From: a virus
Length of the DNA: 64,000 nt
Reading direction: 5' to 3' (one strand)
Virus record (IMG/VR): IMGVR_UViG_3300025174_000005
Shown here one piece after another: positions 6,491 through 24,638 of the stretch. The translations under genes and the position numbers were made by a program. Within the stretch, counting starts at the first letter, position 1. Every line of letters begins with the position of its first letter. The notes under the pieces are model-generated. The model did no database searches, had not been told where the DNA came from, and saw only the letters and a program-made list of their open reading frames with translations.

Positions 6491-9400
6491 CTAACATATT
6501 CCAAAAGTACTACACGGATCTACGGTATCTCCACTAAGTCCACTTAATACTTTGTTTGGTCCTAATGCGGCTTCAAAATGAAGATGTGGTTGACCAGGTG
6601 CTCCTGATACCCCTGAGCGAGCTACTACTTGTCCTTTGATAATACGTACTTTTTCACCGCGTCTAATGCGAGCCATAGTGGTTGGATCAAATTCGTAGTT
6701 CTGTAAGTGAGCATATCCAGCAGCAGTGCCATCATCATGATTAATAGCTAACCAGTTTCCATATCCCCTACCACTAGAACCTATCTGAGTACCTAGGGCT
6801 TCTACATATCCATCTGAAATTGCACGTATAGCTGAGCCCTCAGGAACACCTATGTCTATGCCTTGATGAATATGATCTCCTCGGTTAACACCGAAGGAGC
6901 TAGTGGTGGGTCCATTGCCTGGACGCACATACTGACCAGACTTAACGGGTACGGGTTTAGACGTATCAGCGGGTTGTTTAGATGTAGATGGAGGCAATGA
7001 TTTAGTACCTCCTCGCGCACCCTGAGGAGCCAACTCCTCATTATTGGTATTGGGTTGTTTACCCTTATACTCATCCTCAGCTTGCTTACCAGCTTCTCTT
7101 ATTTGTTTTATTTGTTGAGTAAAGTCATCACTAGATGCATTAGGTATATCATCTCCACCAAGGGTAACTACGGTACCCTGTCTATGACCTGCTATACCTG
7201 CAGTATATTCTCTACCTCTAAAGTTAAGAGGTGCTATAATAAGTGAATATTTACTAGATTGCCAGTATTCTATTGATAAGAATATACGATCAACTACTAG
7301 CCATACTAGTATATCTAGTACTAGAGATACTGCGAATTGTACAGCTGCCACAGGAGCACCAACACCCGTAGCTGCTTCACCTACTGCCGTAGCCTTAAGA
7401 ACCACACTGCCTGCTTTAATTAGCTGTATAATGTTTTTGCCCGCACTAGTTGTTGTCTTACCAGCTTTGATCATCTTACCAAGTGTATTTAGACGCTTGG
7501 CTCTAGCAATAATGTGTATCATGCCTTTGATTTTATTTAGGGCATCGCCGCCAGATTTAGAAAATTTATTAATAAGATCTTTGCCTTTAGATAAGGTAGA
7601 TGTAGTAGGATTTTCAAAACCGTCAACAATGGCTGTTGCTTGAGCTGAGTTAGCAGTTTGGAATAGTTGTTTTGTTTTATTTAATGTATTGCCTGCCTTC
7701 AATAAGGTATTTTTGAGTTTAGCAGCACTATGTGCTAACCATGTAGTAACCGCATTTCTTACAACAACAGTAGCACCTATGGCTGCTATGCCCACTAAAT
7801 AGTTAGCCCATAACCTATCACCTTTTACAGCACAGGCTATATCAGGCGTAATATCTGTAACAAATCCCGTATCAAATCCAAAGTGGTGAGTAACTGCTTT
7901 TATATCAGCAACACCATTCATCTCTACATATGAATCGGCTAAGTAGAATTTATCACATGGGAACGCCCACGGTGTACCCATAACTAATAGGCTTCCTTGA
8001 TACATCTCTCTTGCAGAATCACGAAGTAATGATCTAGTTATCTTGATAGCTTGTCTATGTGCAGAACTGAGTGGCCAACCATTAATGGTATTGTTAATTA
8101 AATCTTTAATTCCACCCCATATACCAGCTGTAAGAAAGTTTAAAAACAAATTAGGTATACCAAATCCAGCATGATCCCAAGGGTCACTAAACTTAGTAGC
8201 TAAGAATCTAGTATCAACTACTTGGTTCTTGCGATATTGAGGGAAGATGGCGCTATCTATTACTTGAGGTTCTATTTTAGGTTCACTGTCAGATACATAC
8301 CATACAGCGTGCATATCTGTATAAACAAGATCATTATTAACTTGTATGTCATTAGCTATAATATTACCCGAGGTAAATATATGAGCTTGAGAAAAGGTTT
8401 TGATTTTATATGCTACAGGTAGCCCAAAACGAGGGTCATTGATGTAAGCAGGATTAGGGTCGGTATTAGATACAGTTGTGCTTCCTGGAGCAGTTTGAGC
8501 ATTCTGAGCTAGTGTTTGGTTAAGCTCTCTACCGCGAGCTATAAGTGATTGCTCCATTAATACTTTTTCTAGTTGTGCACGGACTTCATCTGTATTGGGA
8601 TGATCAATATTACCGTTAAATATGGGTTTATATTTTTGATTTGTTAATTGTTGTAATTCTACTTCCTTTAGGATAATATCATTAGCAAGTAATGTCATTG
8701 CAACATCTGAAATAAGTATGTTTTGAGTGGATTGAATCATACGTAGTGAATTGAGGATGGTCCGAGTTAAATCTTTAATTCTTTGAATATCTTTAACACC
8801 TACTTGACTAGTAGATGTTTGGGTTACATTTATATTGTGTTCTTTATTATTTTGTATGTCCTTAGAGCTAACTCTATGATATGCATACCTAAAGTCATAG
8901 TATCCTTCTCCAAAGAAAAGGGTTGATCTATATTCAAATGGACGTACTTGTAAGTAAAAGTTGGGGCTTGTTTGCATACACAGGGTCATAACATCCCATG
9001 GGTTCTTATTGAATATAAACATATTAAGTTTATGGCCACCTGAACGAAGGAAGTCCTCCTGTGTAGGTGTATCTTCCTTCTTAGCTAATCTGGCTACATC
9101 AGCTGGTGAATATATATTCTCGCCTATTTCACCATAAAAGGCTTTAGGATCTGTGGATGCTAAGTAGAAACCCCTTAGGGGTTCTATTAAATCCATAGTT
9201 GTCCTTCCGAAAAAAGTTAAATTATCAAAGTTAATAGCTACACTTGCTAATATTAGTTGATCTGGTAATGGTATTCCTTTAGCATTTATTCTTTCTAGTG
9301 TTTCTTGCATGGATTGCACTAAAAATCGTTTATTGCTATTTACTTGAGCTTTCATGGCATTCATTATTGGTTCTGGATATACGGGCCTACCGAAATGTAC

Positions 9401-12400
9401 AACTTTCCAGCCCTTCCCTATTAGGGACATTGATTGACCAGCTGTTGATTTGCTGAGTGCGTCTTTTAAGTGTACCCAGAAATCTCCCATAAGAGTTTCA
9501 GCCATGTCACTTTCATCTTCAGCACTAGCTGCTCCATAGGGCATCATCATATTAACCATGAGATCTCTATGTTCATATAGCTGTATGTCTTTAATTTTGG
9601 CATTAGGCTTAGCAACGGGGAATATATTCATTAATTCTCTACCATCACCTTCGGCTATAACCTCTACTACTTCTCCTACCTCTGTAGCTACTACCGTTCC
9701 ATTAAACACAACGGGCAACCGCAATCCATTGGAACCATATCCCAATCTAAAATGTATGCGTATACCTGGGCGTATTGCTGTTTGCTCCCACTGGCGCGTG
9801 CGCTGTTCATTTATGTATTCTATTATCTCTCTATTAGGAATAAGATAAGCTAGATATGAAGCGCCCAACCATGCAAAGTAATCACCTATCATAGCAGGGA
9901 ATCCACCTAATGCATTATTGTTTGCTCCAGCATTAGTGGTTTGAAGAACATGTCTACCGTAATCAGCACCTAGATCTTGCCATCCACCCTGTACCATACT
10001 GTGGTATGCATTAGCAAATGTGAATGTAGCTATATGCACTGGTTCTCGACGATCCATACGGACCGTAGCATCCATAAGAGAATTTAGGCTAGCAAAGATA
10101 GGTATGCATTTAAACCACCATATCATTGGTCCTTCATCGAGTAACTGAAGAACATATGTAGGGAATGCTAATACCAATCTTCCTGTTTGATCATAGGTTA
10201 ATAAATCATGGTAAGCAGCTCTATCTGACTTACCAGGTTTATATCTAGGAACAGGGGCTGTTGCAGCTATAACATCATTTACTGTATTGGATTCTGTATC
10301 TGTCTCTGCTAATATCTGTCTAACAGATCTGTTGGGTATTTCTATTTTCATCTGAGCGGAATTATTATCTCCATGTGTACCACTCTTTGTTTGCACACCA
10401 CCAGTTAACTGAGCATTGGCCTTAAATTTACCTGATGCACCAAGAATATTATTAATATATGCTTGAACTGTAGGTTTTTTAAATGCTGCTCCTGATAGTA
10501 CGTTACCTAGACCATCGTTATATGCAGCAAGAGCTTGCTGATAGTCTCCCTTAGTTGCTTTAAGTTGTAATCCTAAATACTTAGCCGATAGGCGTATATT
10601 GATTTCTGGATCGTAAAGCTTATTAAGTAATCGCTGGTTGTTGATTTTCCCCGTATTACTAAATGTATTAATTATATTGGGATCACAAGCAGCCTTCTCC
10701 TCAGCTCCAAGAAAACCACCTAGAGCTCTAGATGCATCACATGCAGCGGCAGGTCCTAGCTGACCCATACCCACATATCCAGTTGGGCTCTTAGCATGAG
10801 CCTGAAAATTACTCTCTGTTCTAAATAATTCTGTTAGTACAACTGGATCTATATTATTTTCTTTAGCAGCAGAAACAATAGTATCTTTTATTTTTGACAT
10901 TTGTAATTCATCTTGCACCGAATTGTTAGCATAAGTATCTATAGCTCTTGATGGTATAGATATATTATTGGTTTTAGATTCTATAGCTACTAGTGTAATA
11001 GGAGTTGGTTTAGTTGATGCTGGTAAACCTAAAGATGTTTCTATTTTACCTGTTATACTTTGAGGTACTGGTTGTGGCCCTAAAGCTGCTGAATTAAATC
11101 TTTCTATTTCATCTAGTTTAGCTTTAAGATCATCTGCCCTAGCATTAAATATATGCTGCTCAAATTTATCTATACGCTCTCGCTCTTCTTTAGTGGTTGC
11201 ATTTGCTTTTGCTTCTTCTAGTATCTTACGAGCTTCAGCATCTGTCTCTTGAACTAGCCTAGCATTCTCACTAACTCCTATTGATGTTGTATCTATAATG
11301 GAGTTAACCATTTCATTCATAGGTAAACCATCATGATGCGGATGAGTAATTATACTCCCGTATTTCTGCCTACCTATAGCTTTTGCTGTCATCCTATCGT
11401 TTGTACCATCAGGATTAACCGAGAAGTTAGAAGCATAGGTCATTTCTAAACCATCGATCTCAGCATCATTGAGAGCATCTAATATGTGTGCTTGAAGTAA
11501 TCCTACCCATGTAGTTTTATCCTGAGATAGTGGCCATGCCATATAGAAATCAGGATCAACATACAAACCATTATTTTCTTTAATATGTCTAACTAAGATA
11601 GCTCGTTGTTCTGTAAACTCAGGAACTAGTTTGATGATATCAAGTAATCCCTGACTAAATTCTTTAAAAGTAGGTAATTGAAGATCTGGATAGAGTTGCA
11701 AGGTTTGCATACTCTCTAAAGCCATCTCTATTAATTCTTTATCTATACTACGACCAGCACTTTCAACATTGGTATTGTTTTCTAAGTACTTCTTAAATTC
11801 ATCTGATGCAAAGAAGTCGCTTTGAAATACGTGTTTAACATCTTTAAATGCTCTTTCGGCGCGATTGAAAGAAGCGAAACTCATAGTAATCTGACGCCAG
11901 CCAGGGAAACCCTGTACGTCATCCATAAGGATGACTTGTGGTACTACATATCTGATACCTAATAACTTTAAGATAGGATGATCTATGGTCATAAAACCAT
12001 CGTTTATTTCAAAGCGATATTCTCTAGCATATTTCTGAGCATTCTTAAATAAGTTTACTAAGTCTGTTATGAGATTATTGTCATTATTAGCAATTAAGGT
12101 AACAACTATTCTATCTTCTTGTGAACCCATAAATTGGTGAGGGGCAATCTCTTGATCGTGCATACGCATAAGAGTAATCTGATTTTCCATTGTTACGCTC
12201 ATCTGCGTGATAATAATAGGTTCTTGTGTATTTAAGGTTAAGAGATGATCTGAGATACCATTTTCTATCCATTGAGTTCTTAATTTCTTTAGTGCATCTT
12301 CTAGATCTGCGACTTGTTCTCTAGCACGGGATAGTTCTTGTACACGAAGTAATGCACCTATGCGCTTACGTTGCTCTAATGCCTCTTCTGCAACTAGACT

Positions 12401-13603
12401 AAAGGATATCTCACTATTCCACTGTGACTTAAGCAATTCTGCTCCACTAGCTATATCGTCCCAATAAGAAGTTAATTTGGCATTATTGGGATTTGTACCT
12501 AGTGGTGTATGTTTAAATGCATTGCTTTCTGGATCTATGGTATGTTTAATTAGATTAGCTGTAATAGATTTGTGATAGTTTGTCCAGTGCCATCTAAATA
12601 CAGGCCATATAAATGCATCTGTAAAAAAATGTACGTGAGGCATATATACTTTATAGTTAAAAGCAAGCATAGATAAACGCACCTTTAATGCTTGAGGTAA
12701 TCCAGGTACGGTGCCTATTTGCATACTCATTAATGTAATGGCATCTATTTCATAATCTATGGTTAGCTTACTATTGAGCACTGGTAAGAAGGGTGTCTGT
12801 CTGAATTGAGCTACTAATGAAGCTAAACAATTAGGATCTCCGAATACTACTTCTTCACCACTATCTCTTTTAATCTTTTTAACATTACTTGCATTACCAA
12901 ATATCTCATTAAGGTTAGAAAAAGTTAATTCTATCTCTATGCGAATATCAGATCTACCAGCAAAGTGTTGTTGTGCACCAGGCGTACGAATCGTACTAAG
13001 AGCCGTTGTTTGAAATACTTTATTGACAGATATATTCTCTGGTGGTATATGAAATATACTATCTCCTAATCTAAAATAAGTAGGATCACCCAGTAGGTCC
13101 TCTCTATCAGGAAAATCAAATGCCTCAGGAAAGTCATTGTTTTCAAAGAGAGCTTCGTAATTTCCACTAAAACCACCTATATTTAATCCTAATGTTTCCT
13201 TACCTTCTTGGCGAAACTCTCGATTGGCTTCTGCAACTATTAATTTACCACCAAGTCTCTCTGCATTAGTTATTGCACTTTGAACAGTAGAAATACCATT
13301 ATCAGGCATGGCTACTAACTTACTCACAAAGCCCACAGCACCCATAGCTTCTTGTCTAAAGAGGGGTAATATAACTGGGGAGAAGAATTGATCGCGAGTA
13401 AGAGATAAGTTGCTTTCGCCATCAACTATATCAGATACATATTGTCGTGCTTTGCGAACCAGTTCTTGATTGGGATTTTGTTTTCTAAGTTCTGGAAGGA
13501 TAGTAATAAGAGCATTACCACTATCAATTATCTTAAGAAGATCCTTACGATCTTGACTGGTAAGTAATTTAGATGCTTCGTTAGGATTAGTATCTCTAGA
13601 CAT
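6491..13603 (-). CDS. Baseplate hub / tail-associated lysin, 2370 aa, with SLT lytic transglycosylase and C-terminal M23 peptidase
   Basis: SLT motifs at about 10490-10895: RTESNF (catalytic Glu), GMGQL, AYNDG. M23 motifs at about 6540-6900: HQGID (HxxxD), GYGNW, YAHL, HLHFE (HxH). Confidence 0.85.
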   Translation of the reverse strand: MSRDTNPNEASKLLTSQDRKDLLKIIDSGNALITILPELRKQNPNQELVRKARQYVSDIVDGESNLSLTRDQFFSPVILPLFRQEAMGAVGFVSKLVAMPDNGISTVQSAITNAERLGGKLIVAEANREFRQEGKETLGLNIGGFSGNYEALFENNDFPEAFDFPDREDLLGDPTYFRLGDSIFHIPPENISVNKVFQTTALSTIRTPGAQQHFAGRSDIRIEIELTFSNLNEIFGNASNVKKIKRDSGEEVVFGDPNCLASLVAQFRQTPFLPVLNSKLTIDYEIDAITLMSMQIGTVPGLPQALKVRLSMLAFNYKVYMPHVHFFTDAFIWPVFRWHWTNYHKSITANLIKHTIDPESNAFKHTPLGTNPNNAKLTSYWDDIASGAELLKSQWNSEISFSLVAEEALEQRKRIGALLRVQELSRAREQVADLEDALKKLRTQWIENGISDHLLTLNTQEPIIITQMSVTMENQITLMRMHDQEIAPHQFMGSQEDRIVVTLIANNDNNLITDLVNLFKNAQKYAREYRFEINDGFMTIDHPILKLLGIRYVVPQVILMDDVQGFPGWRQITMSFASFNRAERAFKDVKHVFQSDFFASDEFKKYLENNTNVESAGRSIDKELIEMALESMQTLQLYPDLQLPTFKEFSQGLLDIIKLVPEFTEQRAILVRHIKENNGLYVDPDFYMAWPLSQDKTTWVGLLQAHILDALNDAEIDGLEMTYASNFSVNPDGTNDRMTAKAIGRQKYGSIITHPHHDGLPMNEMVNSIIDTTSIGVSENARLVQETDAEARKILEEAKANATTKEERERIDKFEQHIFNARADDLKAKLDEIERFNSAALGPQPVPQSITGKIETSLGLPASTKPTPITLVAIESKTNNISIPSRAIDTYANNSVQDELQMSKIKDTIVSAAKENNIDPVVLTELFRTESNFQAHAKSPTGYVGMGQLGPAAACDASRALGGFLGAEEKAACDPNIINTFSNTGKINNQRLLNKLYDPEINIRLSAKYLGLQLKATKGDYQQALAAYNDGLGNVLSGAAFKKPTVQAYINNILGASGKFKANAQLTGGVQTKSGTHGDNNSAQMKIEIPNRSVRQILAETDTESNTVNDVIAATAPVPRYKPGKSDRAAYHDLLTYDQTGRLVLAFPTYVLQLLDEGPMIWWFKCIPIFASLNSLMDATVRMDRREPVHIATFTFANAYHSMVQGGWQDLGADYGRHVLQTTNAGANNNALGGFPAMIGDYFAWLGASYLAYLIPNREIIEYINEQRTRQWEQTAIRPGIRIHFRLGYGSNGLRLPVVFNGTVVATEVGEVVEVIAEGDGRELMNIFPVAKPNAKIKDIQLYEHRDLMVNMMMPYGAASAEDESDMAETLMGDFWVHLKDALSKSTAGQSMSLIGKGWKVVHFGRPVYPEPIMNAMKAQVNSNKRFLVQSMQETLERINAKGIPLPDQLILASVAINFDNLTFFGRTTMDLIEPLRGFYLASTDPKAFYGEIGENIYSPADVARLAKKEDTPTQEDFLRSGGHKLNMFIFNKNPWDVMTLCMQTSPNFYLQVRPFEYRSTLFFGEGYYDFRYAYHRVSSKDIQNNKEHNINVTQTSTSQVGVKDIQRIKDLTRTILNSLRMIQSTQNILISDVAMTLLANDIILKEVELQQLTNQKYKPIFNGNIDHPNTDEVRAQLEKVLMEQSLIARGRELNQTLAQNAQTAPGSTTVSNTDPNPAYINDPRFGLPVAYKIKTFSQAHIFTSGNIIANDIQVNNDLVYTDMHAVWYVSDSEPKIEPQVIDSAIFPQYRKNQVVDTRFLATKFSDPWDHAGFGIPNLFLNFLTAGIWGGIKDLINNTINGWPLSSAHRQAIKITRSLLRDSAREMYQGSLLVMGTPWAFPCDKFYLADSYVEMNGVADIKAVTHHFGFDTGFVTDITPDIACAVKGDRLWANYLVGIAAIGATVVVRNAVTTWLAHSAAKLKNTLLKAGNTLNKTKQLFQTANSAQATAIVDGFENPTTSTLSKGKDLINKFSKSGGDALNKIKGMIHIIARAKRLNTLGKMIKAGKTTTSAGKNIIQLIKAGSVVLKATAVGEAATGVGAPVAAVQFAVSLVLDILVWLVVDRIFLSIEYWQSSKYSLIIAPLNFRGREYTAGIAGHRQGTVVTLGGDDIPNASSDDFTQQIKQIREAGKQAEDEYKGKQPNTNNEELAPQGARGGTKSLPPSTSKQPADTSKPVPVKSGQYVRPGNGPTTSSFGVNRGDHIHQGIDIGVPEGSAIRAISDGYVEALGTQIGSSGRGYGNWLAINHDDGTAAGYAHLQNYEFDPTTMARIRRGEKVRIIKGQVVARSGVSGAPGQPHLHFEAALGPNKVLSGLSGDTVDPCSTFGIC

Positions 13604-13605
13604 AT

Positions 13606-16600
13606 TTACCTTTTATGAAGTAGATGTAGTAATTCATCTTCAACTGTTTCTTTGATTTTCTTGCGGTGATCTTGTGATGTGATATGAATATTGGTTGGCA
13701 TTTGAACTTGAGATAGTGATTGACCAACCAATTGATGTAGTTGATCGGGGTCTATATCTCCTCTGTCGCGGGCCCTAATGCGCACTTTATACGCATTACC
13801 TCCCTTACCTGGTACTGTCTCATCCATAATACGTGTTGTGCCACCTACTGATGGACTAGCTGGAGGTGTGTAAGAACCATCGGGCATAGGTGTCATGTCT
13901 GGACCAGGTGCTATCATATCTGGTTTGAGTTCACGTTGACCTAGTTGTAGTGAAGAAGAAAGTAATCCCGCACCTACGACAGCTGTAGCTAAACCACCTA
14001 ATCCCCATCGCGCGGAACGAGGTAAGCGCATAAAAGCATTCTCTATCATATCAATAGCTTTTCCTGGCTTAGGACGAATTGTTTCAGCAGCCTCAGCTAC
14101 TCCAGAGGCTGCATGAGCCCCTACACTACCAGCAACTTCTTCTGTGATATCAGCTGCAGCAGTGAAGCTACCCATAAGATCTTGTAGCTTAGCTCCAGAA
14201 CGTATCTGGCGTAATCTTTCTGACATAGGTAGATGAGCGTATTGTTCTGTTAGATTACCTATTAGAGAACTTGTTTGTTGATAGTGGCTTTCTATTACAC
14301 CTTGTTCTGCGCCATGCTGAATACCTCTATCTAATCTACGTCTCCATAAATCTGCTTCACTAATAATAGTTTTTGCTTTAACTTCTTCTATAGCTGATTC
14401 AGGAGCTATACCTTCTACAAATGCCTGGGCTTGAGCAGAACGCAGTTTCTCATTTAGCTCTTCTGCTGTACCTACCATTTTAAACTTAGCTCCGTGGGTT
14501 TCCATAGACTGTAGGATTAACTCATGCATACCTCCAGTTTCCCCAAGGGGTTTTACTTTAGCATAGTATCCTACTCCACGACTAAGAGCATATAGCTTCT
14601 CTTGATTCTGGCGCATAAGTTCTGCAGACTTCTCAGGTATGGCTGCCCATGGACCTGCTTCAAGTGAAGCACCTGCCGATAAGATCTTTCTACGACCTGG
14701 CTCACTCGTAAGAACGTCCATAATATTCTGGGCTCTAGACGGTGAAGGTATTGCAGTAGCTTGAGGACCTGTTGGTATTGCTGTTATTGGTGTTGTTGTT
14801 ATTGGTGTTGTTGGTATTATTGGTGCTGTTGATGGTGCTGTTGGTAATGCTGTTCGTAGTGCTGTTGATAATGCTGTTGGTAATGCTGTTGATGGTGCTG
14901 TTCGTCGTGCTGATGGTGCTACTGTTGGTGTTGGTATTATTGGTGTTGTGGATTTTATTGTAGATTTTAGATGTGTTGTTGTAATAAACTTTTCTCTAGC
15001 TCTTTGCTGTATACTAGTCATCTGCTTCGCAGCTATATTGTATTGCTCTATACCCACCTGTTCAAATGCTGCAGACTGAGCACTCATTATATCATGTAGT
15101 ACGGCTACGTCTCTGGCTGCATACTGGTATCGTTGTTTTGATAGCCTACCACCCCACTTAGATTTTTGTGCTTCTTTAGGCAAGGAAATGTTTAAATATT
15201 TAGACGCAAGATATCCTAGGTTAGATTTACCATACTTAGTTTGACTAAGAACCTGCTCTGCCACCATAGGATCGTATATCTGCCCACCGATTTTATATCC
15301 TTCGCCTAATAAAGCTTTGATATCAAATGGAGCATTTTGTATTATTTTAGGTCTAGAACTAGCGAGGAACTCAGTTAAAATAGATCTACCCTTTTTAGGT
15401 AGTTTAAGGAGATCTACAATACCAACAGGTCCGCCCTCAGCTGAAAGCTGAAGCAATCTAACTCTCTCTATTGCTTCAGAAAATGCTGTTGTTTCTGTAT
15501 CTAATGCAATATGACCAGATGATGGTAGACTCTTAAGGAATTCTTGTAACCCCTTAGCTGTAGTAATACGCTTGTATTGAACTGACTTAGGCTGTAATAC
15601 TTGTTGAGGCATTGGCCCAACAAAAGGTTTAGCATAGGATTCAAGAGGGTTTGTAGGTTGACTGGGTAAATTTACAATGTCTTTGGGTGATTTACCACTA
15701 GCTAATATTCTCTCATGCCCTACAAATTGCTTAGCTATATCTTCACGCTGTTCAAAAAGAGCTTGCATTTTAGGTGTGCCATATAGCTCACCAGCTTCGC
15801 GATGTTGTTGTATTAGTTGCTCTATGTTGGCTAACTCTTTAGATGCTTGCGATGCTTTAGCACCAAACTCAGATACTGTTTCTATTTCTGACATACCAGA
15901 TCTTATATAATCCTGCCATGCTGCCATTTGTTGAGCAAAATCTAATGTAGTAGATTTTGCTAGCTTGAGATATGCTTTAGATCTATATCCTGGTGCTTGC
16001 GTAGCAGCACGAGTTGCAATTTTCTGTATTACTTTACGAAATTCATCAAACTCCGCAACCTCAGCAGTATGACCCTTAACTAGTTTTAATATGTCTTCAG
16101 AGTGTCTAAATTTCTGATAGGAATATATTGCTTGTGGGTGTGTCTGACGCATGTAGGACTCGAATGCTGTTCCAAATACATCAGCTTCTGATAGTTGTGT
16201 GGGTAGGGCTGTTTCTGCAAGAGGAGATATGGACTTAGGACTAAACTGAAAAACTGTTCCCATACCAGATTGTATTTCCCTTTCTCGTTGAGAAAGGGGT
16301 CGTAAGACATCCATTGCCTCCATCTTTTCACGAGACATCACATTAGCAGAAGCCAATTCTTGTGTTAAATCTCTTTTTGCACCAGCTTCTATTATATTAC
16401 TTGTTTGAGCCAATAAGTTACGATCTACCTTAGGAGAAGATGTAAACTGAGCTAACCACGAACCCATCATCTTAAGAGGACGCTCGTGTATCTCCCAGGC
16501 CATACGCGCCTTACTAGAACCAGTCACTACTGTACGGTACCCCTTAAGAGTTTCCTGTACTTCTTCTCCAAAAGAGGGTAAGATTTTCTCAAAGATATGT

Positions 16601-17334
16601 TGTTCCATAGTATATATATCTTTGATAGTATTAGGTAAGGATATATTAGCACCAAAAGAAGCCTTAAGTAATTGCTTAGTTTTTATGACTACATCTTTGG
16701 TAGATGTCTTTTCTATTTGTTGATATGCTTGCAAGAATTCCTGAACAGATAATTCTCGGTGAAAAAGATTTGCCTGAAGTTGTTTAATTTGATCTAGTGT
16801 ATATCCTCCACTAGGCATTGCACCTGTTACGTCTTGCCATAGCTTCCATTTTTCAGTTCTAGTCATGTTTTCTAGCTGTGTTTGCCAAGAACCAGAAGGA
16901 GGTATAATAGTTGGTAGTGATGTCTTTACAGGAAGACCAGTTAATCCTTCGTGATAAGCAGAAGCGGTAAATCTAATAGTTGGTAATTGTGGACCACCTG
17001 TACCACCTATATGACCCAAACTAATCATTTTACTGATCTTAGATCTAATGCTTACATTATGTGGTGTATGGAGATACTGTCCAAAATAGGATGGTGTGCT
17101 TAATGAGGTAGATAGTGCTCGTTGGATTTCTTTGTGTGTTGTGTAGGTCTGATTAGTAAGAGGAGCAATAAGAATATTCTCTCCTGTAAATGGATCTAGT
17201 ATAAGATTACTAGATCTAGTGGTTTGGTTGTGAAGATGCTCGCTCCACGCAGGATTACTAACTGACCTAGCTATGTGAAGAGATTCTCTTGCGCTCTCTT
17301 CTCCGTGATTAATTGGAAAGGGTCCAAATGCCAT
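13606..17334 (-). CDS. Large virion-module protein with embedded PolA-type DEDDy 3'-5' exonuclease domain
   Basis: ExoI ALDTET, ExoII QNAPFD and ExoIII YAARD at about 15050-15600; Thr/Pro/Ala linker; lies between the tape-measure-like gene and the hub. Confidence 0.8.
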   Translation of the reverse strand: MAFGPFPINHGEESARESLHIARSVSNPAWSEHLHNQTTRSSNLILDPFTGENILIAPLTNQTYTTHKEIQRALSTSLSTPSYFGQYLHTPHNVSIRSKISKMISLGHIGGTGGPQLPTIRFTASAYHEGLTGLPVKTSLPTIIPPSGSWQTQLENMTRTEKWKLWQDVTGAMPSGGYTLDQIKQLQANLFHRELSVQEFLQAYQQIEKTSTKDVVIKTKQLLKASFGANISLPNTIKDIYTMEQHIFEKILPSFGEEVQETLKGYRTVVTGSSKARMAWEIHERPLKMMGSWLAQFTSSPKVDRNLLAQTSNIIEAGAKRDLTQELASANVMSREKMEAMDVLRPLSQREREIQSGMGTVFQFSPKSISPLAETALPTQLSEADVFGTAFESYMRQTHPQAIYSYQKFRHSEDILKLVKGHTAEVAEFDEFRKVIQKIATRAATQAPGYRSKAYLKLAKSTTLDFAQQMAAWQDYIRSGMSEIETVSEFGAKASQASKELANIEQLIQQHREAGELYGTPKMQALFEQREDIAKQFVGHERILASGKSPKDIVNLPSQPTNPLESYAKPFVGPMPQQVLQPKSVQYKRITTAKGLQEFLKSLPSSGHIALDTETTAFSEAIERVRLLQLSAEGGPVGIVDLLKLPKKGRSILTEFLASSRPKIIQNAPFDIKALLGEGYKIGGQIYDPMVAEQVLSQTKYGKSNLGYLASKYLNISLPKEAQKSKWGGRLSKQRYQYAARDVAVLHDIMSAQSAAFEQVGIEQYNIAAKQMTSIQQRAREKFITTTHLKSTIKSTTPIIPTPTVAPSARRTAPSTALPTALSTALRTALPTAPSTAPIIPTTPITTTPITAIPTGPQATAIPSPSRAQNIMDVLTSEPGRRKILSAGASLEAGPWAAIPEKSAELMRQNQEKLYALSRGVGYYAKVKPLGETGGMHELILQSMETHGAKFKMVGTAEELNEKLRSAQAQAFVEGIAPESAIEEVKAKTIISEADLWRRRLDRGIQHGAEQGVIESHYQQTSSLIGNLTEQYAHLPMSERLRQIRSGAKLQDLMGSFTAAADITEEVAGSVGAHAASGVAEAAETIRPKPGKAIDMIENAFMRLPRSARWGLGGLATAVVGAGLLSSSLQLGQRELKPDMIAPGPDMTPMPDGSYTPPASPSVGGTTRIMDETVPGKGGNAYKVRIRARDRGDIDPDQLHQLVGQSLSQVQMPTNIHITSQDHRKKIKETVEDELLHLLHKR
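14825..14912 (+). repeat. Copy of the 12-bp GCTGTT minisatellite inside the exonuclease virion gene, read antisense
   Basis: GCTGTTGATGGT GCTGTTGGTAAT GCTGTTCGTAGT GCTGTTGATAAT...; encodes TALP/TALS/TALR on the minus strand. Confidence 0.9.
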
Positions 17335-17350: not shown

Positions 17351-20300
17351 CTACCTAAGTAACATATGTCCATCTTTGCGGATGAACTCACGTATTTGAT
17401 CTTCTCGTTCGTGCTTAACTCTCATATCTATTTGTATATCTGGATTTTCACTGGGTGTATCTTCTACGGTAATAAATAGATTTTCTAAACCCTGCCCTCC
17501 AAGTATGTGATGTAAGTAATCTTTTAAATGTCCGCCGTCTCTAGGAACAAAGGGTTGTATATCAAGTACGCCTTGTCGCTCTGCTGCTTCTACACGAGGA
17601 CCATAATATCCCATCTCTGCCATATCTAATCCTTCATTCTTCATAACCTTTATCTTATAGTCTTCTAGATTAGCATCAGGACTCCAACCATGCCAGTCTG
17701 GGGGAGGTAGAAAATGATTTTTGAAGTACTCTTCTAAATCTGGGCGATCCTCTATGGGCATCCTCCACTTAGCCTCAAGTACTCGTCGCATATTGTGAGG
17801 TACTAAGTTGAGTATTTCTGACCGTTCCTTGGGAGGAGCTTTCATGAATTCAACCATGAACTCTCGTTCACGAGAAGGAATAGCTCTAAATATATCCAGC
17901 ATTGCGCCATGAGGATCTACACCATATAGAGTTGTCTTAGCTAGATCTCTATACTGTATCGCTCTAGCTATCTCTTCTGTTAGAGGTATAACTTGTGTTT
18001 CTTTACTAAGATCGCCTAAGCGTTTAGTGTATTTACGTGATATGTGTTCTCTCAAGTGCTTATCTTTACTGGCTATACGCTTGCGGATTTTCCGCAACTG
18101 TTTAATATGATGTTTATCTTCTTTAGTTTTTTCTGACTTAGCTGTTAGTTGTTGAAGTTCTCGTTCTGTTTTAAGAAGCTCTAATAGATGAGAACCATGG
18201 AGTCCACGCCTAAGAAAATGTCGTTTATGAGAGGTTAGTCTACGTTGCTCATTCTTACGAGCTTCACCCTGTCCTTCTAATAAGTTAAGTAATCTATCTA
18301 CATCTATTCCTGTGGTATCTTTAATATTACTTATGGCAGCTCCATATAATCTCTGATATTTCATATATCTAAGTATATCAAAGTATTCTTCCGTATCTCT
18401 TCTATGTTGTAGTTTACCAGGTATGGCGTGAGTAGCCTTAAGATATAAGCTATACGATAACCCAGCTATACCTCCGATAGCACCTAATACACCCTTAGAC
18501 CTACCCATGCGTACATACCACCGCTCTAATGTAGAGAGCGTTCTTTGCTCCAAGTACTTGGCAGCAACGGGACCTGTACGTCCTAAGAATAAACCCAAAG
18601 TAGCTCCGCCTATTAATCCATGTATAGGACTTTCTGCTGCCCAGCCTTGTATTGCTTGACCTATAATACCTAATGGATTTGTCCAGTTATAGAAGTTAGC
18701 ACCATATACCATTCGTCTTCTATAGTATTCTAGCGCTGAATCTGTCTGTAGAAATTTTTGCTTAATTGTACCCACAATTGGTATGGGTATGGTCATATGC
18801 GAAAACCACTCAAGTGATTTACCTAGACCTATTTCCATTCCACTAAATCTGGCTTGTATGCCTGTTGGTGAGTAGTCGGTTACCTTCTCCTTAGCTACTC
18901 CTGCATCCAATAGGGCTTGCTGTAATTTTCTACCTTGCTCGTCAAATACAACAGCATGCATAGTTTGTAGTGTATCGTCTGCTACTTGAATAAGCGGATC
19001 TTTATTAAGTATTACTTTTATCTTACCGCCTATTGGAGCAAACTGTTGAGTAATCTCTAACGCCTGTAATCCTTCCTTGTCCTTACCTATAGCCGCACGT
19101 ATTCCCGCTAATCTAATGGGATTAGCTAATTCTTCTGTAAGTATTGTTTGTGAATCTATAATCGATTTAACAGTTAATGTATGTTCTTCAACATCACCAG
19201 CATACCTAAATCTATATGGTGCAAAATTATAACGCTTCTTACGTTTTGCAACTTCTTTACGTATAGCAGCTATCCTAGTTCTTGCATTCTCTATGTTTAT
19301 TCTATCTTGTCCTTGTAATCCTGTTGGTTCTAATACATGCGTAGCATAATCTAAATATGACTTAAATGTTTTAGAATATGGAGCAACATCAGCTAATATC
19401 TCTAACCTATCCATAAGAGGATATTGTTCCATTGATATATCTTGAGGCAATCCATGGATAGAAGCATATCCTGGTCCAGGTAACCTAGCCTCACCCCTTG
19501 GCAGGGCTGAATAAGGATCCGCTCGATGGAAGTTGATAAAGTAATCTGGCTCAATACTACCAGTTCCAGGTAGCCAGCTTGGTTGTGTATTTAGTAGTGG
19601 ATTAATTTCCTTGGCACGTTCTTCATATCCTCGCCTACTAAGTGCTCGTCTAAATATTTCAGAAAGCTCTCCCATTACAGGTAAATCAGGAGAGAAACCA
19701 CCTATGTTTAGATCTCGATAAAGATAACGCTCTAATGAAGTGTATTCTGGTTGAGCCAATCTATATTGCTCTAATGTCTTATTGCCAACTAAGGTCTTAC
19801 CTATGTATCCACGAAGACCAAATATATCCGCTATAGACTCCTGTTCTCTAGCAAACTGTACACCTATCCCTGCGGGATGAATTAGTTGATCTATAATATC
19901 TGGTGTTAATTGATTAATATCTGTGACTTCAGATAGGGGTCTTAGGTTCTCAAGTACTCCCTCATCTAATACCCTACCTGAACGTGTGCCTTCATTAGCT
20001 TGCGCTAGAGCATCTAAAACACGTTCTCTGGATACATATCTAGGAGTAGTTCCTTGTTGTTCGGGTATGGGTGCCACTGCTCTTGCACCAGCTTGACGTA
20101 TATTTAGATTGATGTCAGCTAATTGATCTGTGACGTGTCCGCTTGTTGTAGGTATGGGTTTTGTTGGACCTGCTCCCGTAGGTGTTGGTTGTAATTGTGT
20201 AACTTGTACCTGACCACCAGGGGTTACATACCCATATAAGTCCTCATCCCTAACCTTACGAGTAGTTTCGTTTTGTTCCGCAAGGGTATTAAAATACTCC

Positions 20301-21928
20301 TTAAGTTCATTAACATGCATAGGACGTACGGGTTTAATAAGTTGTCCTATGGTAGCATTAACTATTGGTCCATAGAAAGCTGTTGATTCTACTAATGGAG
20401 CAGTAAGAGGTGTGGGTCTAGATTCATAAAACTTCTTTTCCCAGTGATAAGGATCTAGATAATGAGGTAGTGGTATTCCTAAATTTTCTAATGTTGGTAG
20501 ACTGGCATATTTATAATATTCACTAGGAGGGAAGAAAGCCTCTCTTGGATGTTCATGAGCTCTACGTACCCATGGAGATTGATATGATTCTATTCTCCCA
20601 CCTCTGAAGAGCTCAGGCGACATAGCTGCCCACCATCTACCCTTACGTACAGGTTCCCTACCTTTCTCGTAATACTCTTCTAGTTCATCCCTGCTTAAGC
20701 CTACGGGTTGATCTACAAATGGATGTGCTACAAGAGATGTTAATTCTGGAGCAATAGAATGTAAGCGTTTAACAAAGGGGGTTATTCCTGTAATGTCCTT
20801 GAGCCATGCTAATCCTAAATTAGCATGCTTATATCCTTCTGCTAATACATCATATGGAGACGTACCAAATACATCTCTAGATTTAGTGTTTAAATAGTTT
20901 AGATAAAATGCTCCTAGAGCTAGAGGAGCAACGCGGCCAAATACTACATTAAGTACAAAGTCAGCAGGCGAAGACATTGCTCCTTCGCCTAAAGCTAGGT
21001 ACTTACCAAACGGAAGGGCTTGGCGTACTTGTTCATTTAGCTTTATGGCCGTACGCATAAAGCCTAAGGATATATCACTAACTTCCCCTGGGTATGCTCT
21101 AGCTTTCCATAGCTCTTTACCTAATCCTCTTACATCTTCCCAGATGGACTGTTGACCAGTGAAGCGTTCACGTATAGTTGACCATTGATTAATCTTAGAA
21201 CGTTCAAAATAATCCGTCCCATGTATTAGATTCTTCCAGAATCCATGTTGTTTAACTTGTTGTTGGAAAGTAAAATCAGATAATTCAGGTACAGCCTGAC
21301 TAAATAGAACACTAAATTCTTTAGAATAGGTGCCAGTAAATTGTTCCTCAGTAGATGTTGCACCTACGAAACCACCACGAGTTAGTTTAAAGCCCTTACC
21401 AAGAACCTCTTTGCTACGAGTACCATATATAGCACCCCTAATATAGATAAGTTCTTCGTCTACATTTTTACTTAAGAAGCGGAGAGAAGGATGTCTTACT
21501 GCCTTACTAAGATTAACTACAAAGGGAGTTTGTGCTTCCTGTACTGCATGACGCAAGCCAACCATACCAGATAGGATATGTCCTGGCCATGTTTCCTCTA
21601 GAACAGTTGTAGCTTTTTGAATAAATGGATGTTTGAGTGCTTGATATCTTAGAGATTCAAGAAGACTCAGTGGACGCTCAGATGCTTCTTGTATACCGCG
21701 TCTGATAGCCTCGGTAGCAGCCCTAGTTGAAGGACCATATCGTAGTTTGCCACCTTGCTCCAAGATCTCAGTAGTAAATTGCTTAGTTACTGCAGCTGAT
21801 CTTCCCCGCAACAATAAAGCAGCTCCTCCTGCTAGGAGGAGCCCACCCATACTCCATTTAAGAAGAGCGCTTCTGCGCTCTTCTGCATCTGGGTCTCGAT
21901 AGACCCCATATTCTTTAAACATGGTCAT
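17351..21928 (-). CDS. Tape measure-like protein with a degenerate SNase (thermonuclease)-like domain
   Basis: 1525 aa directly after two tail chaperones. VKSIIDSQTI...PIRLAGI...LQQALLDAGVAK at about 18890-19190 follows the SNase pattern. Confidence 0.65.
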   Translation of the reverse strand: MTMFKEYGVYRDPDAEERRSALLKWSMGGLLLAGGAALLLRGRSAAVTKQFTTEILEQGGKLRYGPSTRAATEAIRRGIQEASERPLSLLESLRYQALKHPFIQKATTVLEETWPGHILSGMVGLRHAVQEAQTPFVVNLSKAVRHPSLRFLSKNVDEELIYIRGAIYGTRSKEVLGKGFKLTRGGFVGATSTEEQFTGTYSKEFSVLFSQAVPELSDFTFQQQVKQHGFWKNLIHGTDYFERSKINQWSTIRERFTGQQSIWEDVRGLGKELWKARAYPGEVSDISLGFMRTAIKLNEQVRQALPFGKYLALGEGAMSSPADFVLNVVFGRVAPLALGAFYLNYLNTKSRDVFGTSPYDVLAEGYKHANLGLAWLKDITGITPFVKRLHSIAPELTSLVAHPFVDQPVGLSRDELEEYYEKGREPVRKGRWWAAMSPELFRGGRIESYQSPWVRRAHEHPREAFFPPSEYYKYASLPTLENLGIPLPHYLDPYHWEKKFYESRPTPLTAPLVESTAFYGPIVNATIGQLIKPVRPMHVNELKEYFNTLAEQNETTRKVRDEDLYGYVTPGGQVQVTQLQPTPTGAGPTKPIPTTSGHVTDQLADINLNIRQAGARAVAPIPEQQGTTPRYVSRERVLDALAQANEGTRSGRVLDEGVLENLRPLSEVTDINQLTPDIIDQLIHPAGIGVQFAREQESIADIFGLRGYIGKTLVGNKTLEQYRLAQPEYTSLERYLYRDLNIGGFSPDLPVMGELSEIFRRALSRRGYEERAKEINPLLNTQPSWLPGTGSIEPDYFINFHRADPYSALPRGEARLPGPGYASIHGLPQDISMEQYPLMDRLEILADVAPYSKTFKSYLDYATHVLEPTGLQGQDRINIENARTRIAAIRKEVAKRKKRYNFAPYRFRYAGDVEEHTLTVKSIIDSQTILTEELANPIRLAGIRAAIGKDKEGLQALEITQQFAPIGGKIKVILNKDPLIQVADDTLQTMHAVVFDEQGRKLQQALLDAGVAKEKVTDYSPTGIQARFSGMEIGLGKSLEWFSHMTIPIPIVGTIKQKFLQTDSALEYYRRRMVYGANFYNWTNPLGIIGQAIQGWAAESPIHGLIGGATLGLFLGRTGPVAAKYLEQRTLSTLERWYVRMGRSKGVLGAIGGIAGLSYSLYLKATHAIPGKLQHRRDTEEYFDILRYMKYQRLYGAAISNIKDTTGIDVDRLLNLLEGQGEARKNEQRRLTSHKRHFLRRGLHGSHLLELLKTERELQQLTAKSEKTKEDKHHIKQLRKIRKRIASKDKHLREHISRKYTKRLGDLSKETQVIPLTEEIARAIQYRDLAKTTLYGVDPHGAMLDIFRAIPSREREFMVEFMKAPPKERSEILNLVPHNMRRVLEAKWRMPIEDRPDLEEYFKNHFLPPPDWHGWSPDANLEDYKIKVMKNEGLDMAEMGYYGPRVEAAERQGVLDIQPFVPRDGGHLKDYLHHILGGQGLENLFITVEDTPSENPDIQIDMRVKHEREDQIREFIRKDGHMLLR

Positions 21929-22530
21929 GGCCCTATGTTGTTAGCTCCAAACATCTTTTGGATGATTGCTTCGCGTTCCTGATCTCTACTGCGAGGTGAT
22001 GGATTATTGACTTCAGATCTGATTCGTCTACGATATATATCTTCAGCTGTTGGAGGGGGTTTGAGTTGTACTGGATTGAGCACTAGGTTCTCATGCATCC
22101 ACTCTGCACGGCTATAATGATATAATAGCTCTTGCATAGACATCTTTTTTATTTCCCACAATGGCATTACAAAGTATCTAGCAACTATAGCTTCTATCTT
22201 ATCTTGAAATGAACCGTTAGCTTCTAGCTCATCTCTATAGGCACAAAGCAAACTAGTTGCTTTAGGTCCCCATCCTGATGCTGTAAGTATTGCTTCTGAT
22301 AACCCTGAAGCAACTCCCATAGGAAGCTCTAGTAAATCTATATCTTTTGGGTATAAAATACATAACTTACATAGTAACTCTTCTCGTTCACACTCATTAG
22401 TAAATCCCATAAGAGCTTGTTGCTCAAATAGCTTAAGAGATCTAAAAATAAAATTCCATTGTAGAATTTTAACTTGGTAGATCCCTCTATATTCAAGTTT
22501 CCAATTAAGGATCTGTTCGGGAGTAATCAT
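21925..22530 (-). CDS. Tail assembly chaperone (paralog 2)
   Basis: Between tube genes and TMP; shares the W....IY...FR.L...E...EE.....LYP...G....L...SG(W/F) pattern with 22553..22954. Confidence 0.65.
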   Translation of the reverse strand: MITPEQILNWKLEYRGIYQVKILQWNFIFRSLKLFEQQALMGFTNECEREELLCKLCILYPKDIDLLELPMGVASGLSEAILTASGWGPKATSLLCAYRDELEANGSFQDKIEAIVARYFVMPLWEIKKMSMQELLYHYSRAEWMHENLVLNPVQLKPPPTAEDIYRRRIRSEVNNPSPRSRDQEREAIIQKMFGANNIGP

Positions 22531-22552
22531 TACATATTATTTTAATTAAGTA

Positions 22553-22954
22553 TTAAAGTGGGATTGGGGGTGGCGCATTAAAACCTGAGACCTCTAGTAA
22601 TTGTTTAACTATCGTACCAGGTATACCTGCTTTTTTACCAATTAGATCTGTTTGAGTAATAGCTGGCCATAAAATCACTTTTGAAGTCAATATCTCTTCA
22701 AATAATAATTCATCTGTCCCAGAATTCTCACTAAACAATCTCTTATATTCAGCTCGGTTAATACCACGCCAGATTATAACCTCATCCATAAAATCCGTAG
22801 CATAGATATTAGTATGTACTTGTTTCCAATAATCTCTCTGAGCAATAGTTGGACCTCCTGGAAACAAAACCTCCTGTCCAGCTTCATTGTAATACTTCTT
22901 AGGTTCTGGAACAACTTGAGGAACCTGCTCTATTACAGTAGTATCTTCTGACAT
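22553..22954 (-). CDS. Tail assembly chaperone (paralog 1)
   Basis: 133 aa, synteny, AAGGAG RBS upstream, paralogous to the adjacent gene. Confidence 0.65.
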   Translation of the reverse strand: MSEDTTVIEQVPQVVPEPKKYYNEAGQEVLFPGGPTIAQRDYWKQVHTNIYATDFMDEVIIWRGINRAEYKRLFSENSGTDELLFEEILTSKVILWPAITQTDLIGKKAGIPGTIVKQLLEVSGFNAPPPIPL

Positions 22955-23042: not shown

Positions 23043-23837
23043 TTATGGTTCGGGGAAGGAAATATTATTCTGTCGCTTACGCTCATCAGGTATACGAGCT
23101 CGCAGATTAATATCTTTAGCAAGAAAAGTAAATTGTTCCATAATAGGTTGTCCTGTTATGTCAGTAACTTGCTGTACTGACATAGGATAGATATAGTCTA
23201 TTGATCTAACATCGGCAAATCTGTTATTGATATCATTATGTAGATTACTAGTATCTTCCCTATATCCATATGTAATAAAAATATGTAGTGGTGGAAATTG
23301 TATGGATTTGGGATCGTCTTCTTGAATATCTTGGAAGTAGGGTGTTTGTCTTGCAAATTGTTGTAAGTTAGTAGTTGAACCTTGAGATACCGACCAATAT
23401 CTTCCGCGTTGTCTATCTAAGAAGTCTTGGAAGTCTACATCTACTGGTCCATCAAAAGCACTACTAGCACTAGTGTTTAAATCATATATGTTGGTGGATT
23501 CATTTGCTATGCTGGTTAAATCATTACCTAGATCATTAATATAACTAGATGGTTCTGGGAAGCTCTTACCGTAGTTATAAAGATATTCATGTAAGTATAG
23601 TGCTCCTCTTAAATTGATGTGAAACGTACCACGCACCAATCTAGTACCGCGTATGATTCTATTCGCTATATAATCCGCATGTCCATAGATTGGTTGTAGC
23701 TGTTCTTCTAGTGAAAATTGTAAGTTAACCACATCACTTACCCATTGATCGTTAAGGAAGATAGCTACATCCGCACCTGAGAAATACTGAGCGGGATATG
23801 CTCTACTTATGGGTATGGGATTATATTCGATAGCCAT
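23043..23837 (-). CDS. Tail tube-like protein 3 (tube initiator-like)
   Basis: YFSGADVAIF...L...LQPIYG.....GTRLVRGT...FIA shared with the two upstream tube-like genes. Confidence 0.65.
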   Translation of the reverse strand: MAIEYNPIPISRAYPAQYFSGADVAIFLNDQWVSDVVNLQFSLEEQLQPIYGHADYIANRIIRGTRLVRGTFHINLRGALYLHEYLYNYGKSFPEPSSYINDLGNDLTSIANESTNIYDLNTSASSAFDGPVDVDFQDFLDRQRGRYWSVSQGSTTNLQQFARQTPYFQDIQEDDPKSIQFPPLHIFITYGYREDTSNLHNDINNRFADVRSIDYIYPMSVQQVTDITGQPIMEQFTFLAKDINLRARIPDERKRQNNISFPEP

Positions 23838-24520
23838 TAGGCTATACCACCCGTGCTAGGTATATCGACTGTTTTATCTGTAAATATAGTATTGCCTGGA
23901 TTAATATATATGGGTATAAGTGGTTTATATGCAAGTGCCTGGTAGGTCATAGTTTGCTCTGTCATTAAATCATCTATGGATATTGTCATGCCATCATCTA
24001 CTATTGTAATACCCTTAATCGTAGCCGTACACATCTGCCCGTATTCATTAGCTACTGTCATGGTAATATCAAATGGGGGTAGTGAATCTGCCATAAGATA
24101 ATTAGGTGGTGTAATTACACTTTTAGGATAATAAACCGACTTTGTATTCCACATATTAAGTAATTCTTGACGAATATCATGCAGAGCATATTTATCAAAT
24201 ACGGCAAAAATTAACGTGCCTGCGTAGGTGCGATGCCCACTAGTAAATCCCTTTGGACTTCTAAAGCCTAATGCGCGAACAGGTATCTTATCTGTATGTG
24301 TAGAAATAGATAGTGTTTGTAGATTACCTATGATATAGGTCTTTCCACTAGCCTTACCAGCAGGAATACCTTTAATTTCTAATTCCTGACTACGTAGAGG
24401 AATAGTAATAGATGCCACCATATCAACACCAGCAAAAGACGAGTAATTGCCAATAGCCTTATACATAGCATCTTTACTGTTATAGAATCTGGTTTGTTGG
24501 CTAAGAGAACCACTTGCCAT
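23837..24520 (-). CDS. Tail tube-like protein 2
   Basis: SFAGVD..ASI...LQTLSIST...PVRALG..PKGFT.G.R..AGTLIF..FD...LPPFDITMT.ANEYG; clear paralog of 24659..25447. Confidence 0.75.
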   Translation of the reverse strand: MASGSLSQQTRFYNSKDAMYKAIGNYSSFAGVDMVASITIPLRSQELEIKGIPAGKASGKTYIIGNLQTLSISTHTDKIPVRALGFRSPKGFTSGHRTYAGTLIFAVFDKYALHDIRQELLNMWNTKSVYYPKSVITPPNYLMADSLPPFDITMTVANEYGQMCTATIKGITIVDDGMTISIDDLMTEQTMTYQALAYKPLIPIYINPGNTIFTDKTVDIPSTGGIA

Positions 24521-24609
24521 ATAAGCTCCTTAGGGGAATAGTTACTTAGCTAGGCTTAGCTAATAAGTTCTTAGGTGTGCACTATACTACTTATCTAAGT
24601 AGTATAATA

Positions 24610-24638
24610 GAAGGAGCGGGATAATATCCCGCTCCTTC
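24610..24638 (-). terminator. Intrinsic terminator hairpin after the major tube gene
   Basis: GAAGGAGCGGGAT-AAT-ATCCCGCTCCTTC, 13-bp stem. Confidence 0.75.

Follow-up and report, generated by a model that had tools for sequence, protein, structure and literature searches.

A PolA-type DEDDy 3′–5′ exonuclease domain in a putative tape-measure-family tail protein of an uncultured myovirus

The window examined here, that is, the whole stretch of DNA analysed, comprises 64,000 nucleotides (nt) of the IMG/VR virus record IMGVR_UViG_3300025174_000005, from an uncultured myovirus, a distant relative of Bacillus phage 0305phi8-36, with a genome of ~180 kb according to database entries. It corresponds to the region of late structural genes in a phage with a contractile tail, encoded on the minus strand, and includes three giant genes for proteins of, in order, 1525, 1242, and 2370 amino acids (aa). 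The middle gene, P0001, is an open reading frame (ORF) without interruption, and its product carries a 3′–5′ exonuclease domain set between two linkers; this domain and the protein around it are the subject of the present report. The genes and features concerned are the following.

13606–17334, minus strand: P0001, 1242 aa, gp146-family protein with exonuclease (from the ORF, gene order, and C-terminal profile)
17351–21928, minus strand: P0003, 1525 aa, homologue of the 0305phi8-36 virion protein gp145 (BLASTP)
6491–13603, minus strand: P0004, 2370 aa, baseplate hub/tail lysin with SLT and M23 domains, gp147 homologue
15085–15573, minus strand: PolA-type DEDDy 3′–5′ exonuclease domain of P0001, residues 588–750 (Pfam, PDB, AlphaFold2, Foldseek)
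15490–15507, minus strand: ExoI motif ALDTET, residues 610–615, with D612 and E614 (sequence, alignment)
15322–15336, minus strand: ExoII motif NAPFD, residues 667–671, with N667, F670, and D671 (sequence, alignment)
15109–15123, minus strand: ExoIII motif YAARD, residues 738–742, with Y738 and D742 (sequence, alignment)
15580–15699, minus strand: P/Q-rich linker before the domain, residues ~546–585 (sequence, model confidence)
14725–14979, minus strand: Pro/Thr/Ala-rich linker after the domain, residues 786–870 (composition, tandem repeats)

For characterization of the exonuclease domain, a combination of Pfam and PDB sequence searches, AlphaFold2 modelling, and Foldseek was used. The Pfam family PF01612 (DNA_pol_A_exo1) matched residues 588–750 with an E value of 9.2e-22; the score of 78.1 bits is far above the curated cut-off, which lies at 23.6. 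An earlier, sequence-only reading of the window had called an intact DEDDy exonuclease from the motifs ALDTET, NAPFD, and YAARD, and all three were found where that reading had put them. In an alignment of 55 sequences, in which the ExoI D-x-E columns were invariant or ≥90% conserved, P0001 bears the family residue at D612, E614, D671, and Y738; the sequence itself also contains D742, and a number of second-shell family residues are intact as well. Sequence matches in the PDB were to the apicoplast PolA exonuclease (E 3e-13), NrnC, and diDNase. The AlphaFold2 model of residues 556–800, built with 55 homologues, had a mean predicted local distance difference test (pLDDT) score of 89.4. When this model was searched with Foldseek, PolA exonuclease domains were the best matches (top root-mean-square deviation 1.7 Å over 159 columns), followed by NrnC, RNase D, and Rrp6, with a probability of 1.0 to PolA exonuclease, NrnC, and RNase D; the predicted fold is RNase H-like.

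The same reading had seen low-complexity linkers on either side of the domain and no polymerase after it, and both points held. No match to the polymerase family PF00476 could be found in P0001, and because a profile of family A polymerases containing both exonuclease and polymerase parts (exo+pol) was covered only at positions 5–187 of 583, over the exonuclease part, the protein is considered to be without a polymerase. Nor did Pfam detect an HRDC domain (PF00570) after the exonuclease. The P/Q-rich linker coincides with low pLDDT in residues 1–20 of the model, and the Pro/Thr/Ala-rich linker, with a PTSA content of 0.55–0.65, is encoded by a tandem repeat of 12-nt period (14769–14949; Tandem Repeats Finder scores up to 149) whose GC content at third codon positions (GC3) is 0.05, against ~0.25 elsewhere. 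The domain is confirmed as a complete PolA-type DEDDy 3′–5′ exonuclease and is apparently functional.

Two public entries correspond to the protein. The ESM Atlas entry gives the full 1242-aa sequence of P0001. The entry in a public protein collection, P0002, has 752 aa and starts at residue 492, with M replacing the GGT (Gly) codon of residue 491 (window 15862–15864); because GGT is not a start codon, this start is suspect, and P0002 is probably an edge-truncated or artefactual call.

Related loci were gathered from IMG/VR and metagenomes with an alignment of the gp145 family, which yielded 159 loci (L003–L161). A giant ORF was found after the gp145 homologue in 126 of them; 114 of these ORFs were complete, giving 102 unique proteins in 64 clusters. 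The middle proteins of these relatives range from 921 to 3265 aa, and a hub-like ORF came next in 88 of the 114 complete cases. The P0001 gene lies in the corresponding position, between P0003, which was matched by BLASTP to gp145 of phage 0305phi8-36 (E 2e-97) and to CDS0026 of Moorella phage MTATph1 (E 2e-106), and the gp147-type hub P0004. The sequence-only reading had placed P0001 between a tape-measure-like gene and the hub; this placement is to be corrected, since P0001 is itself the homologue of gp146 and the upstream gene is that of gp145. Its description of P0001 as a giant tail-module protein agrees with the gp146 homology. The gp146 protein of 0305phi8-36 (ABS83704.1, 2537 aa) is annotated as a tape measure and noted in GenBank as a virion protein by mass spectrometry. 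Hardies et al. made the tape-measure assignment of gp146 mainly via its correlation with tail length, and found conservation in the protein to be limited to the last ~60 residues (PMC2147016).

Two features at the C terminus of P0001 could be related to this family.

13651–14112, minus strand: C-terminal module, residues 1075–1228, of which ~130–150 aa are conserved, shared with tape-measure-position proteins of relatives
13948–14007, minus strand: Gly/Ala/Leu-rich hydrophobic segment within the module, residues 1110–1129 (sequence, profile alignment)

A hidden Markov model built from the C-terminal 200 aa in 62 relatives matched residues 1075–1228 of P0001 with E 1e-14 and gave no match to P0003 or P0004; the best pairwise match of the module was to L003 (E 3e-10). 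No match to P0001 was obtained with an N-terminal profile of the gp146 family, nor could similarity between P0001 and gp146 be detected outside the C terminus. Residues 1110–1129 align where the family profile is likewise hydrophobic, and they fall under the Kyte–Doolittle threshold of 1.6; the segment is possibly a membrane-inserting helix. Because gene order is conserved in the related loci and the C-terminal profile matches at the E value given, P0001 belongs to the gp146 family, i.e. it is a putative tape measure or tail-lumen ejection protein.

The P0001 gene shows tight operon spacing, with GGAG upstream of its ATG, and this context bears on whether the protein is a virion component at all. 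By type, the domain belongs with the proofreading exonucleases of DNA polymerases, and some jumbo phages encode a proofreading exonuclease apart from the polymerase (PMC7824862), so that P0001 could be imagined as a replication or repair subunit encoded in the late region. The domain sits, however, inside a 1242-aa protein whose C terminus is homologous to a virion protein verified by mass spectrometry, and the gene sits in the structural operon with a tail gene packed closely on either side for translation, which makes such a role most improbable.

A second question is whether P0003, rather than P0001, is the true length ruler, with P0001 a separate tail-lumen or ejection cargo encoded before the hub. 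The chaperone-like genes of the window lie directly before P0003 and not before P0001, P0003 has two hydrophobic segments, and the middle proteins of relatives are packed with globular enzyme modules that leave less room for a ruler; the mainly length-based assignment of gp146 points the same way. On the other hand, the middle protein varies more than 3-fold in length (921–3265 aa) and diverges fast save for its hub-adjacent C terminus, as would be expected of a tape measure, the published assignment is to gp146, and the gp145 family (24 database relatives and 409 IMG/VR matches) has long conserved blocks with invariant residues, among them PVRKGRxW, GExRLPGxGY, and ILADVAPYS. P0003 itself had no Pfam or PHROG match, and a degenerate SNase fold at 18877–19187 within it was unsupported by Pfam and PHROG profile searches. 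A ruler role for P0003 is regarded as doubtful, albeit one to be taken seriously.

The PolA-type (DEDDy) profile, when run over the 159 loci, matched no other tail protein. Long proteins among the 150 best matches that have no full-length polymerase domain were considered as further cases of DEDDy domains in tail proteins and rejected, being primase/helicase–exonuclease fusions, truncated polymerases, and RNase D-like proteins. A different exonuclease of the DEDD superfamily was found in most relatives. The first lead was a Pfam RNase_T match (E 5e-8) in the L069 middle protein, and a motif scan then gave DEDDh-like motifs in several further middle proteins, gp146 included. The divergent DEDDh domains were not reached by jackhmmer from the exonuclease regions of L069 or P0001; from L071 and L027, the homologous region was recovered in >40 proteins. 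Examples are as follows.

L071, 14083–15108: DEDDh domain
L027, 14117–15154: DEDDh domain
L022 (0305phi8-36 gp146), residues ~1222–1690: DEDDh domain

In an alignment of 40 of these domains, the invariant or near-invariant positions were the ExoI D and E, the ExoII N and D (N..FD), a further D, the ExoIII H and D (H-x4-D), one Leu, and one Gly. Among PDB chains, the DEDDh profile matched those of PolC exonuclease, exonuclease I, DnaQ, and RNase T as well as TREX-like ones, with E values between 1e-10 and 1e-5, and an AlphaFold2 model of the domain (pLDDT 86) was recognized by Foldseek as RNase T/exonuclease I. At a profile E value of <1e-5, DEDDh was present in 69 of the 102 unique middle proteins and 46 of the 64 clusters, near the N terminus in 63 proteins and centrally in 6. 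Among the central cases is gp146, with its motifs D-I-E, N...D, and H-x4-D at residues 1222, 1439, and 1685. These domains are divergent, with large insertions, and are mostly missed by Pfam; that of gp146 went undetected at E ≤ 0.01. P0001 showed no such domain when compared with the DEDDh family profile (E 0.7). Because the DEDDh and DEDDy alignments, when compared profile to profile, came into register at just the ExoI motif, with a probability of 8%, the two are treated as separate subfamilies. Conservation confined to catalytic residues, as seen in the DEDDh alignment, is taken as a signature of catalysis rather than of mere binding, and on comparative grounds the case that exonuclease activity is under selection in the gp146 family is unusually good.

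The P0001 domain is closest, at 33–45% identity, to the exonuclease domains found in family A polymerases of the exo+pol kind. Its GC3 is 0.257, and in both GC and GC3 it equals the remainder of the gene and the phage's other late genes, by which recent horizontal acquisition was ruled out; because the composition is fully ameliorated, the DEDDy domain would have resided in the phage for a long time. In a FastTree phylogeny of gp145 homologues, which omits a distant freshwater group whose matches were too short, the window phage falls inside a clade with DEDDh in 43 of 53 rows. An exchange of one type of exonuclease for another appears to have taken place in the putatively ejected tail protein: the ancestral DEDDh domain would have been lost in the window lineage, and a domain from a family A DNA polymerase gene would have taken over the exonuclease job in P0001. 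In the simplest history, this protein would have lost the ancestral domain of DnaQ type and acquired a DEDDy domain that came from a polymerase.

Such a passenger might have ceased to be a nuclease, and might serve instead as a cap that binds DNA 3′ ends, as a plug, or as the neutral remnant of an old insertion. No P0001 orthologue by which selection might be shown was found in the databases, the short class of relatives manages without an exonuclease, and end-protecting ejection proteins exist (80alpha gp44, PMC7290940). Against a loss of activity stand all five catalytic residues and several second-shell residues, intact despite the long residence, together with the analogous DEDDh domain of relatives, which conserves essentially catalytic residues only. 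We consider an inert domain to be improbable.

A further module accompanies the exonuclease in many relatives. Of the 102 middle proteins, 53 have in common a region in which D-x-D-x-D comes ~35 residues after an invariant R-x-P (counted at E < 1e-5), the profile of which matches the catalytic barrel of RNA polymerase β′ and phiKZ gp55 with E 1e-8 to 1e-5. The module spans ~500–600 aa (e.g. L031, 18056–20005), and all but two of its carriers (51 of 53) also have the DEDDh exonuclease, the 3148-aa protein of L057 being one that combines both. It could not be detected in gp146, and no window ORF, P0001 included, gave a match to the β′-like module (R-x-P-T, DxDxD), the best E value being 0.43. 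The sole DxDxD of P0001 is the one in its C-terminal module. This D-x-D-x-D (window 13660–13760) reads DIDPD in P0001 (residues ~1193–1197), DKDPD in L071, and DRDKD in L030; it lies at an equivalent distance from the C terminus in all three and has no relation to the RNA-polymerase motif that relatives carry at a more upstream position.

With a probability of roughly 0.6, we read P0001 as a tape-measure-family tail-lumen protein with an active exonuclease, its domain replaced, that would be ejected and trim 3′ ends, the likeliest substrate being the leading end of the phage's DNA. Like gp146, P0001 would be packaged in the tail and expelled ahead of the genome on sheath contraction; the C-terminal module and its hydrophobic segment would then anchor it at the entry channel, where the exonuclease would trim 3′ ends of nucleic acid. 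Trimming of the phage's own leading end could serve, for example, to expose a single strand for annealing of terminal repeats, or to allow initiation by a co-delivered polymerase. Delivery of an enzyme at entry would be the most economical reading of P0001, and it is strengthened because most relatives have another DEDD exonuclease in the same protein. In model tape measures the C terminus is at the tail tip. The phage's own DNA end is favoured as substrate because the DEDDh domain is N-terminal in most relatives, an end that would face the head and the end of the packaged DNA if these proteins are oriented like model tape measures, and because half of the relatives pair the domain with the RNA-polymerase-like module on one polypeptide. 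End-trimming at entry looks like a selected function that has so far gone undescribed. A broader version, for which the chances are judged to fall somewhat short of even, would make the exonuclease a core function of the ejection protein throughout a mostly uncultured clade of large contractile-tailed phages, 0305phi8-36 included, acquired at least two times independently and joined in many members to an RNA-polymerase-like module on one polypeptide; the tail lumen would then deliver a small machine for DNA-end processing and transcription that acts on whatever DNA enters the cell first, of which the window phage would have a minimal version, its ancestral DnaQ-type domain exchanged for a polymerase-derived one.

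Several observations weigh against P0001 as an ejected, end-trimming tail protein. No exonuclease could be detected in 33 of the 102 relatives, nearly all of them short (921–2104 aa), nor was DEDDh found in ORFs within 10 kb; because these relatives have none there or nearby, the exonuclease seems dispensable in some lineages. No orthologue of the whole of P0001 was found beyond the same phage's record and polymerase exonuclease domains, the search having covered a word index of 5.8 billion proteins, HMMER against 1.84 billion representatives, IMG/VR peptide patterns, and INPHARED by megablast and tblastn. The nearest relatives of P0003 are P0154 (81% identity, on a 10.8-kb contig) and L082 (73%, on a 7.2-kb contig ending inside the gp145 homologue), and neither contig extends into the downstream gene. 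In the gp145 tree, the near neighbours of the window phage are poorly supported. A folded domain of 25 kDa, present three or six times over, would be a poor fit for a tube lumen of ~4 nm, and the exonuclease lies in the middle of the protein, though fitting into the lumen would need unfolding or a position at one end. The tape-measure assignment of gp146 on which the reading leans is mainly a correlation of lengths, and the activity, substrate, and virion presence of P0001 are themselves predictions.

DEDD exonucleases need a free 3′-OH. For this reason cyclic oligoadenylates are unlikely substrates, and the targets crRNA and nucleic-acid immune signals suggested in the sequence-only reading are hypothetical. 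The point also bears on the main functional rival, a host-directed role, in which the delivered enzyme would act in counter-defence or takeover by degrading linear oligonucleotide signals, 3′ ends of CRISPR RNA or other guides, retron or primer DNA, or the nicked chromosome. Such a role would be in keeping with a fold common to NrnC and diDNase, which act on very short oligonucleotides, and to the RNA processors RNase D and Rrp6, and polyvalent proteins that are injected, comprise several domains, and bear enzymes directed against the host are well established (PMC5512222, PMC7824862). The closest sequence relatives of the P0001 domain are, however, proofreading domains of DNA polymerases and not NrnC or RNase D, P0001 is without HRDC, and cyclic signals offer no free 3′-OH. 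In addition, a few molecules tethered at an entry pore would be ill-suited to clearing a diffusible pool, and DEDD exonucleases are absent from the main text of the polyvalent-protein survey (PMC5512222). Action on host nucleic acids is considered unlikely, and trimming of the incoming phage DNA end is preferred.

The remainder of the window is consistent in gene content with a contractile-tailed phage. On the minus strand the order is terminase, portal, major-head-like protein, two sheath paralogues, tube-like proteins, two chaperone-like proteins, the three giants, and baseplate. Genes other than those given above are located as follows.

49709–51424, minus strand: terminase
45197–47335, minus strand: portal
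40607–41737, minus strand: major-head-like protein
21925–22954, minus strand: two tail-chaperone-like genes, 133 aa and 201 aa (phrog_29362)

The hub P0004 matched SLT (E 3e-15) and M23 (E 8e-16) in Pfam and phrog_20474 in PHROG (E 4e-143), and it is homologous to 0305phi8-36 gp147 (tblastn, BLASTP) and to its counterpart in Moorella phage MTATph1. In the latter phage, a cultured relative, a transposase gene and small ORFs lie between the tape-measure-position gene and the hub gene (L002, 9789–11276). Both chaperone-like proteins match phrog_29362 over overlapping profile ranges, and the first ends in a domain similar to the one with which the second begins; the pair corresponds to the two-gene, frameshift-free G/GT-like arrangement of 0305phi8-36 gp143/144 (PMC2147016). 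Tail genes are duplicated over the regions 23837–25447 and 25463–29140, which contain two sheath paralogues of 420 and 547 aa and two adjacent proteins of 227 and 262 aa. Both of the adjacent proteins match phrog_9206, which is labelled major head protein; judged by position, they are more likely tube proteins. A tRNA search of the window found none. Past a GC-rich stretch (54–58 kb) with few ORFs of ≥100 aa, an early-looking region contains a plus-strand gene (62154–63431) for a 425-aa protein with a DUF6745 domain (E 9e-31).

Should end-trimming be conserved in the gp146 family, many large phages would process nucleic-acid ends at entry, before phage gene expression. This would have a bearing on the survival of linear genomes in the face of host nucleases, on circularization or recombination of terminal repeats, and on the start of pre-early transcription. 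Bacillus phage 0305phi8-36, whose gp146 has the DEDDh motifs and which can be grown on a laboratory strain of Bacillus thuringiensis, offers a directly testable system, and residues 556–790 of P0001 provide a second, canonical domain that should be readily expressed.

Tape measure proteins are usually viewed as rulers and channel formers, sometimes with wall-cutting motifs. The closest comparison for P0001 is 0305phi8-36 gp146, with which it shares the slot between a gp145 homologue and a gp147-type hub, the C-terminal module, the character of a fast-diverging giant, and a DEDD-superfamily exonuclease; the two differ in that gp146 has 2537 aa and a divergent DnaQ-like DEDDh domain, whereas P0001 has 1242 aa and a canonical PolA-type DEDDy domain. 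With the exonuclease domains of family A polymerases (PF01612; apicoplast, PDB 5dku/7sxq), the P0001 domain has in common the catalytic residues, the fold, and up to 45% identity (to metagenomic exo+pol proteins), but in P0001 it is an insert between linkers of a tail protein, with no polymerase following. The stand-alone NrnC, diDNase, and RNase D proteins (~200–375 aa) have the same fold and catalytic motifs; they are less similar to the P0001 domain than PolA exonucleases are, and RNase D has the HRDC domain that P0001 lacks.

Among enzyme-bearing tail proteins, gp96 of Thermus phage P23-45 is a tape measure with an N-terminal virion RNA polymerase (Chaban et al. 2024, PMC10770324). As in P0001, a nucleic-acid enzyme is fused to a tape measure and action at the DNA entry pore has been proposed (PMC10770324), and 53 of the 102 relatives of P0001 parallel gp96 through the β′-like module with its invariant DxDxD. 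P0001, by contrast, has an exonuclease and no RNA-polymerase module, belongs to a myovirus rather than a siphovirus, and is known from sequence alone. Ejected proteins that act on genome ends are represented by 80alpha gp44 (PMC7290940). Tape measures with peptidoglycan hydrolase motifs, such as that of mycobacteriophage TM4 (Piuri and Hatfull 2006, as cited in PMC13277306), similarly have an enzymatic module inside the ruler protein that is used at entry; there the substrate is the cell wall, whereas the window phage keeps its wall-degrading SLT and M23 domains in the hub P0004. The polyvalent injected proteins of Iyer et al. 2017 (PMC5512222) are likewise giant, multi-domain, co-delivered with DNA, and equipped with enzymes that target nucleic acids, but they are not described as tape measures, and exonucleases of DEDD/DnaQ type do not feature in the main text of that survey. 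In full-text literature searches, no published description of a tape measure protein with an exonuclease came up. Tape measure and ejection proteins that carry enzymes are already known, and P0001 is a new variation among them.

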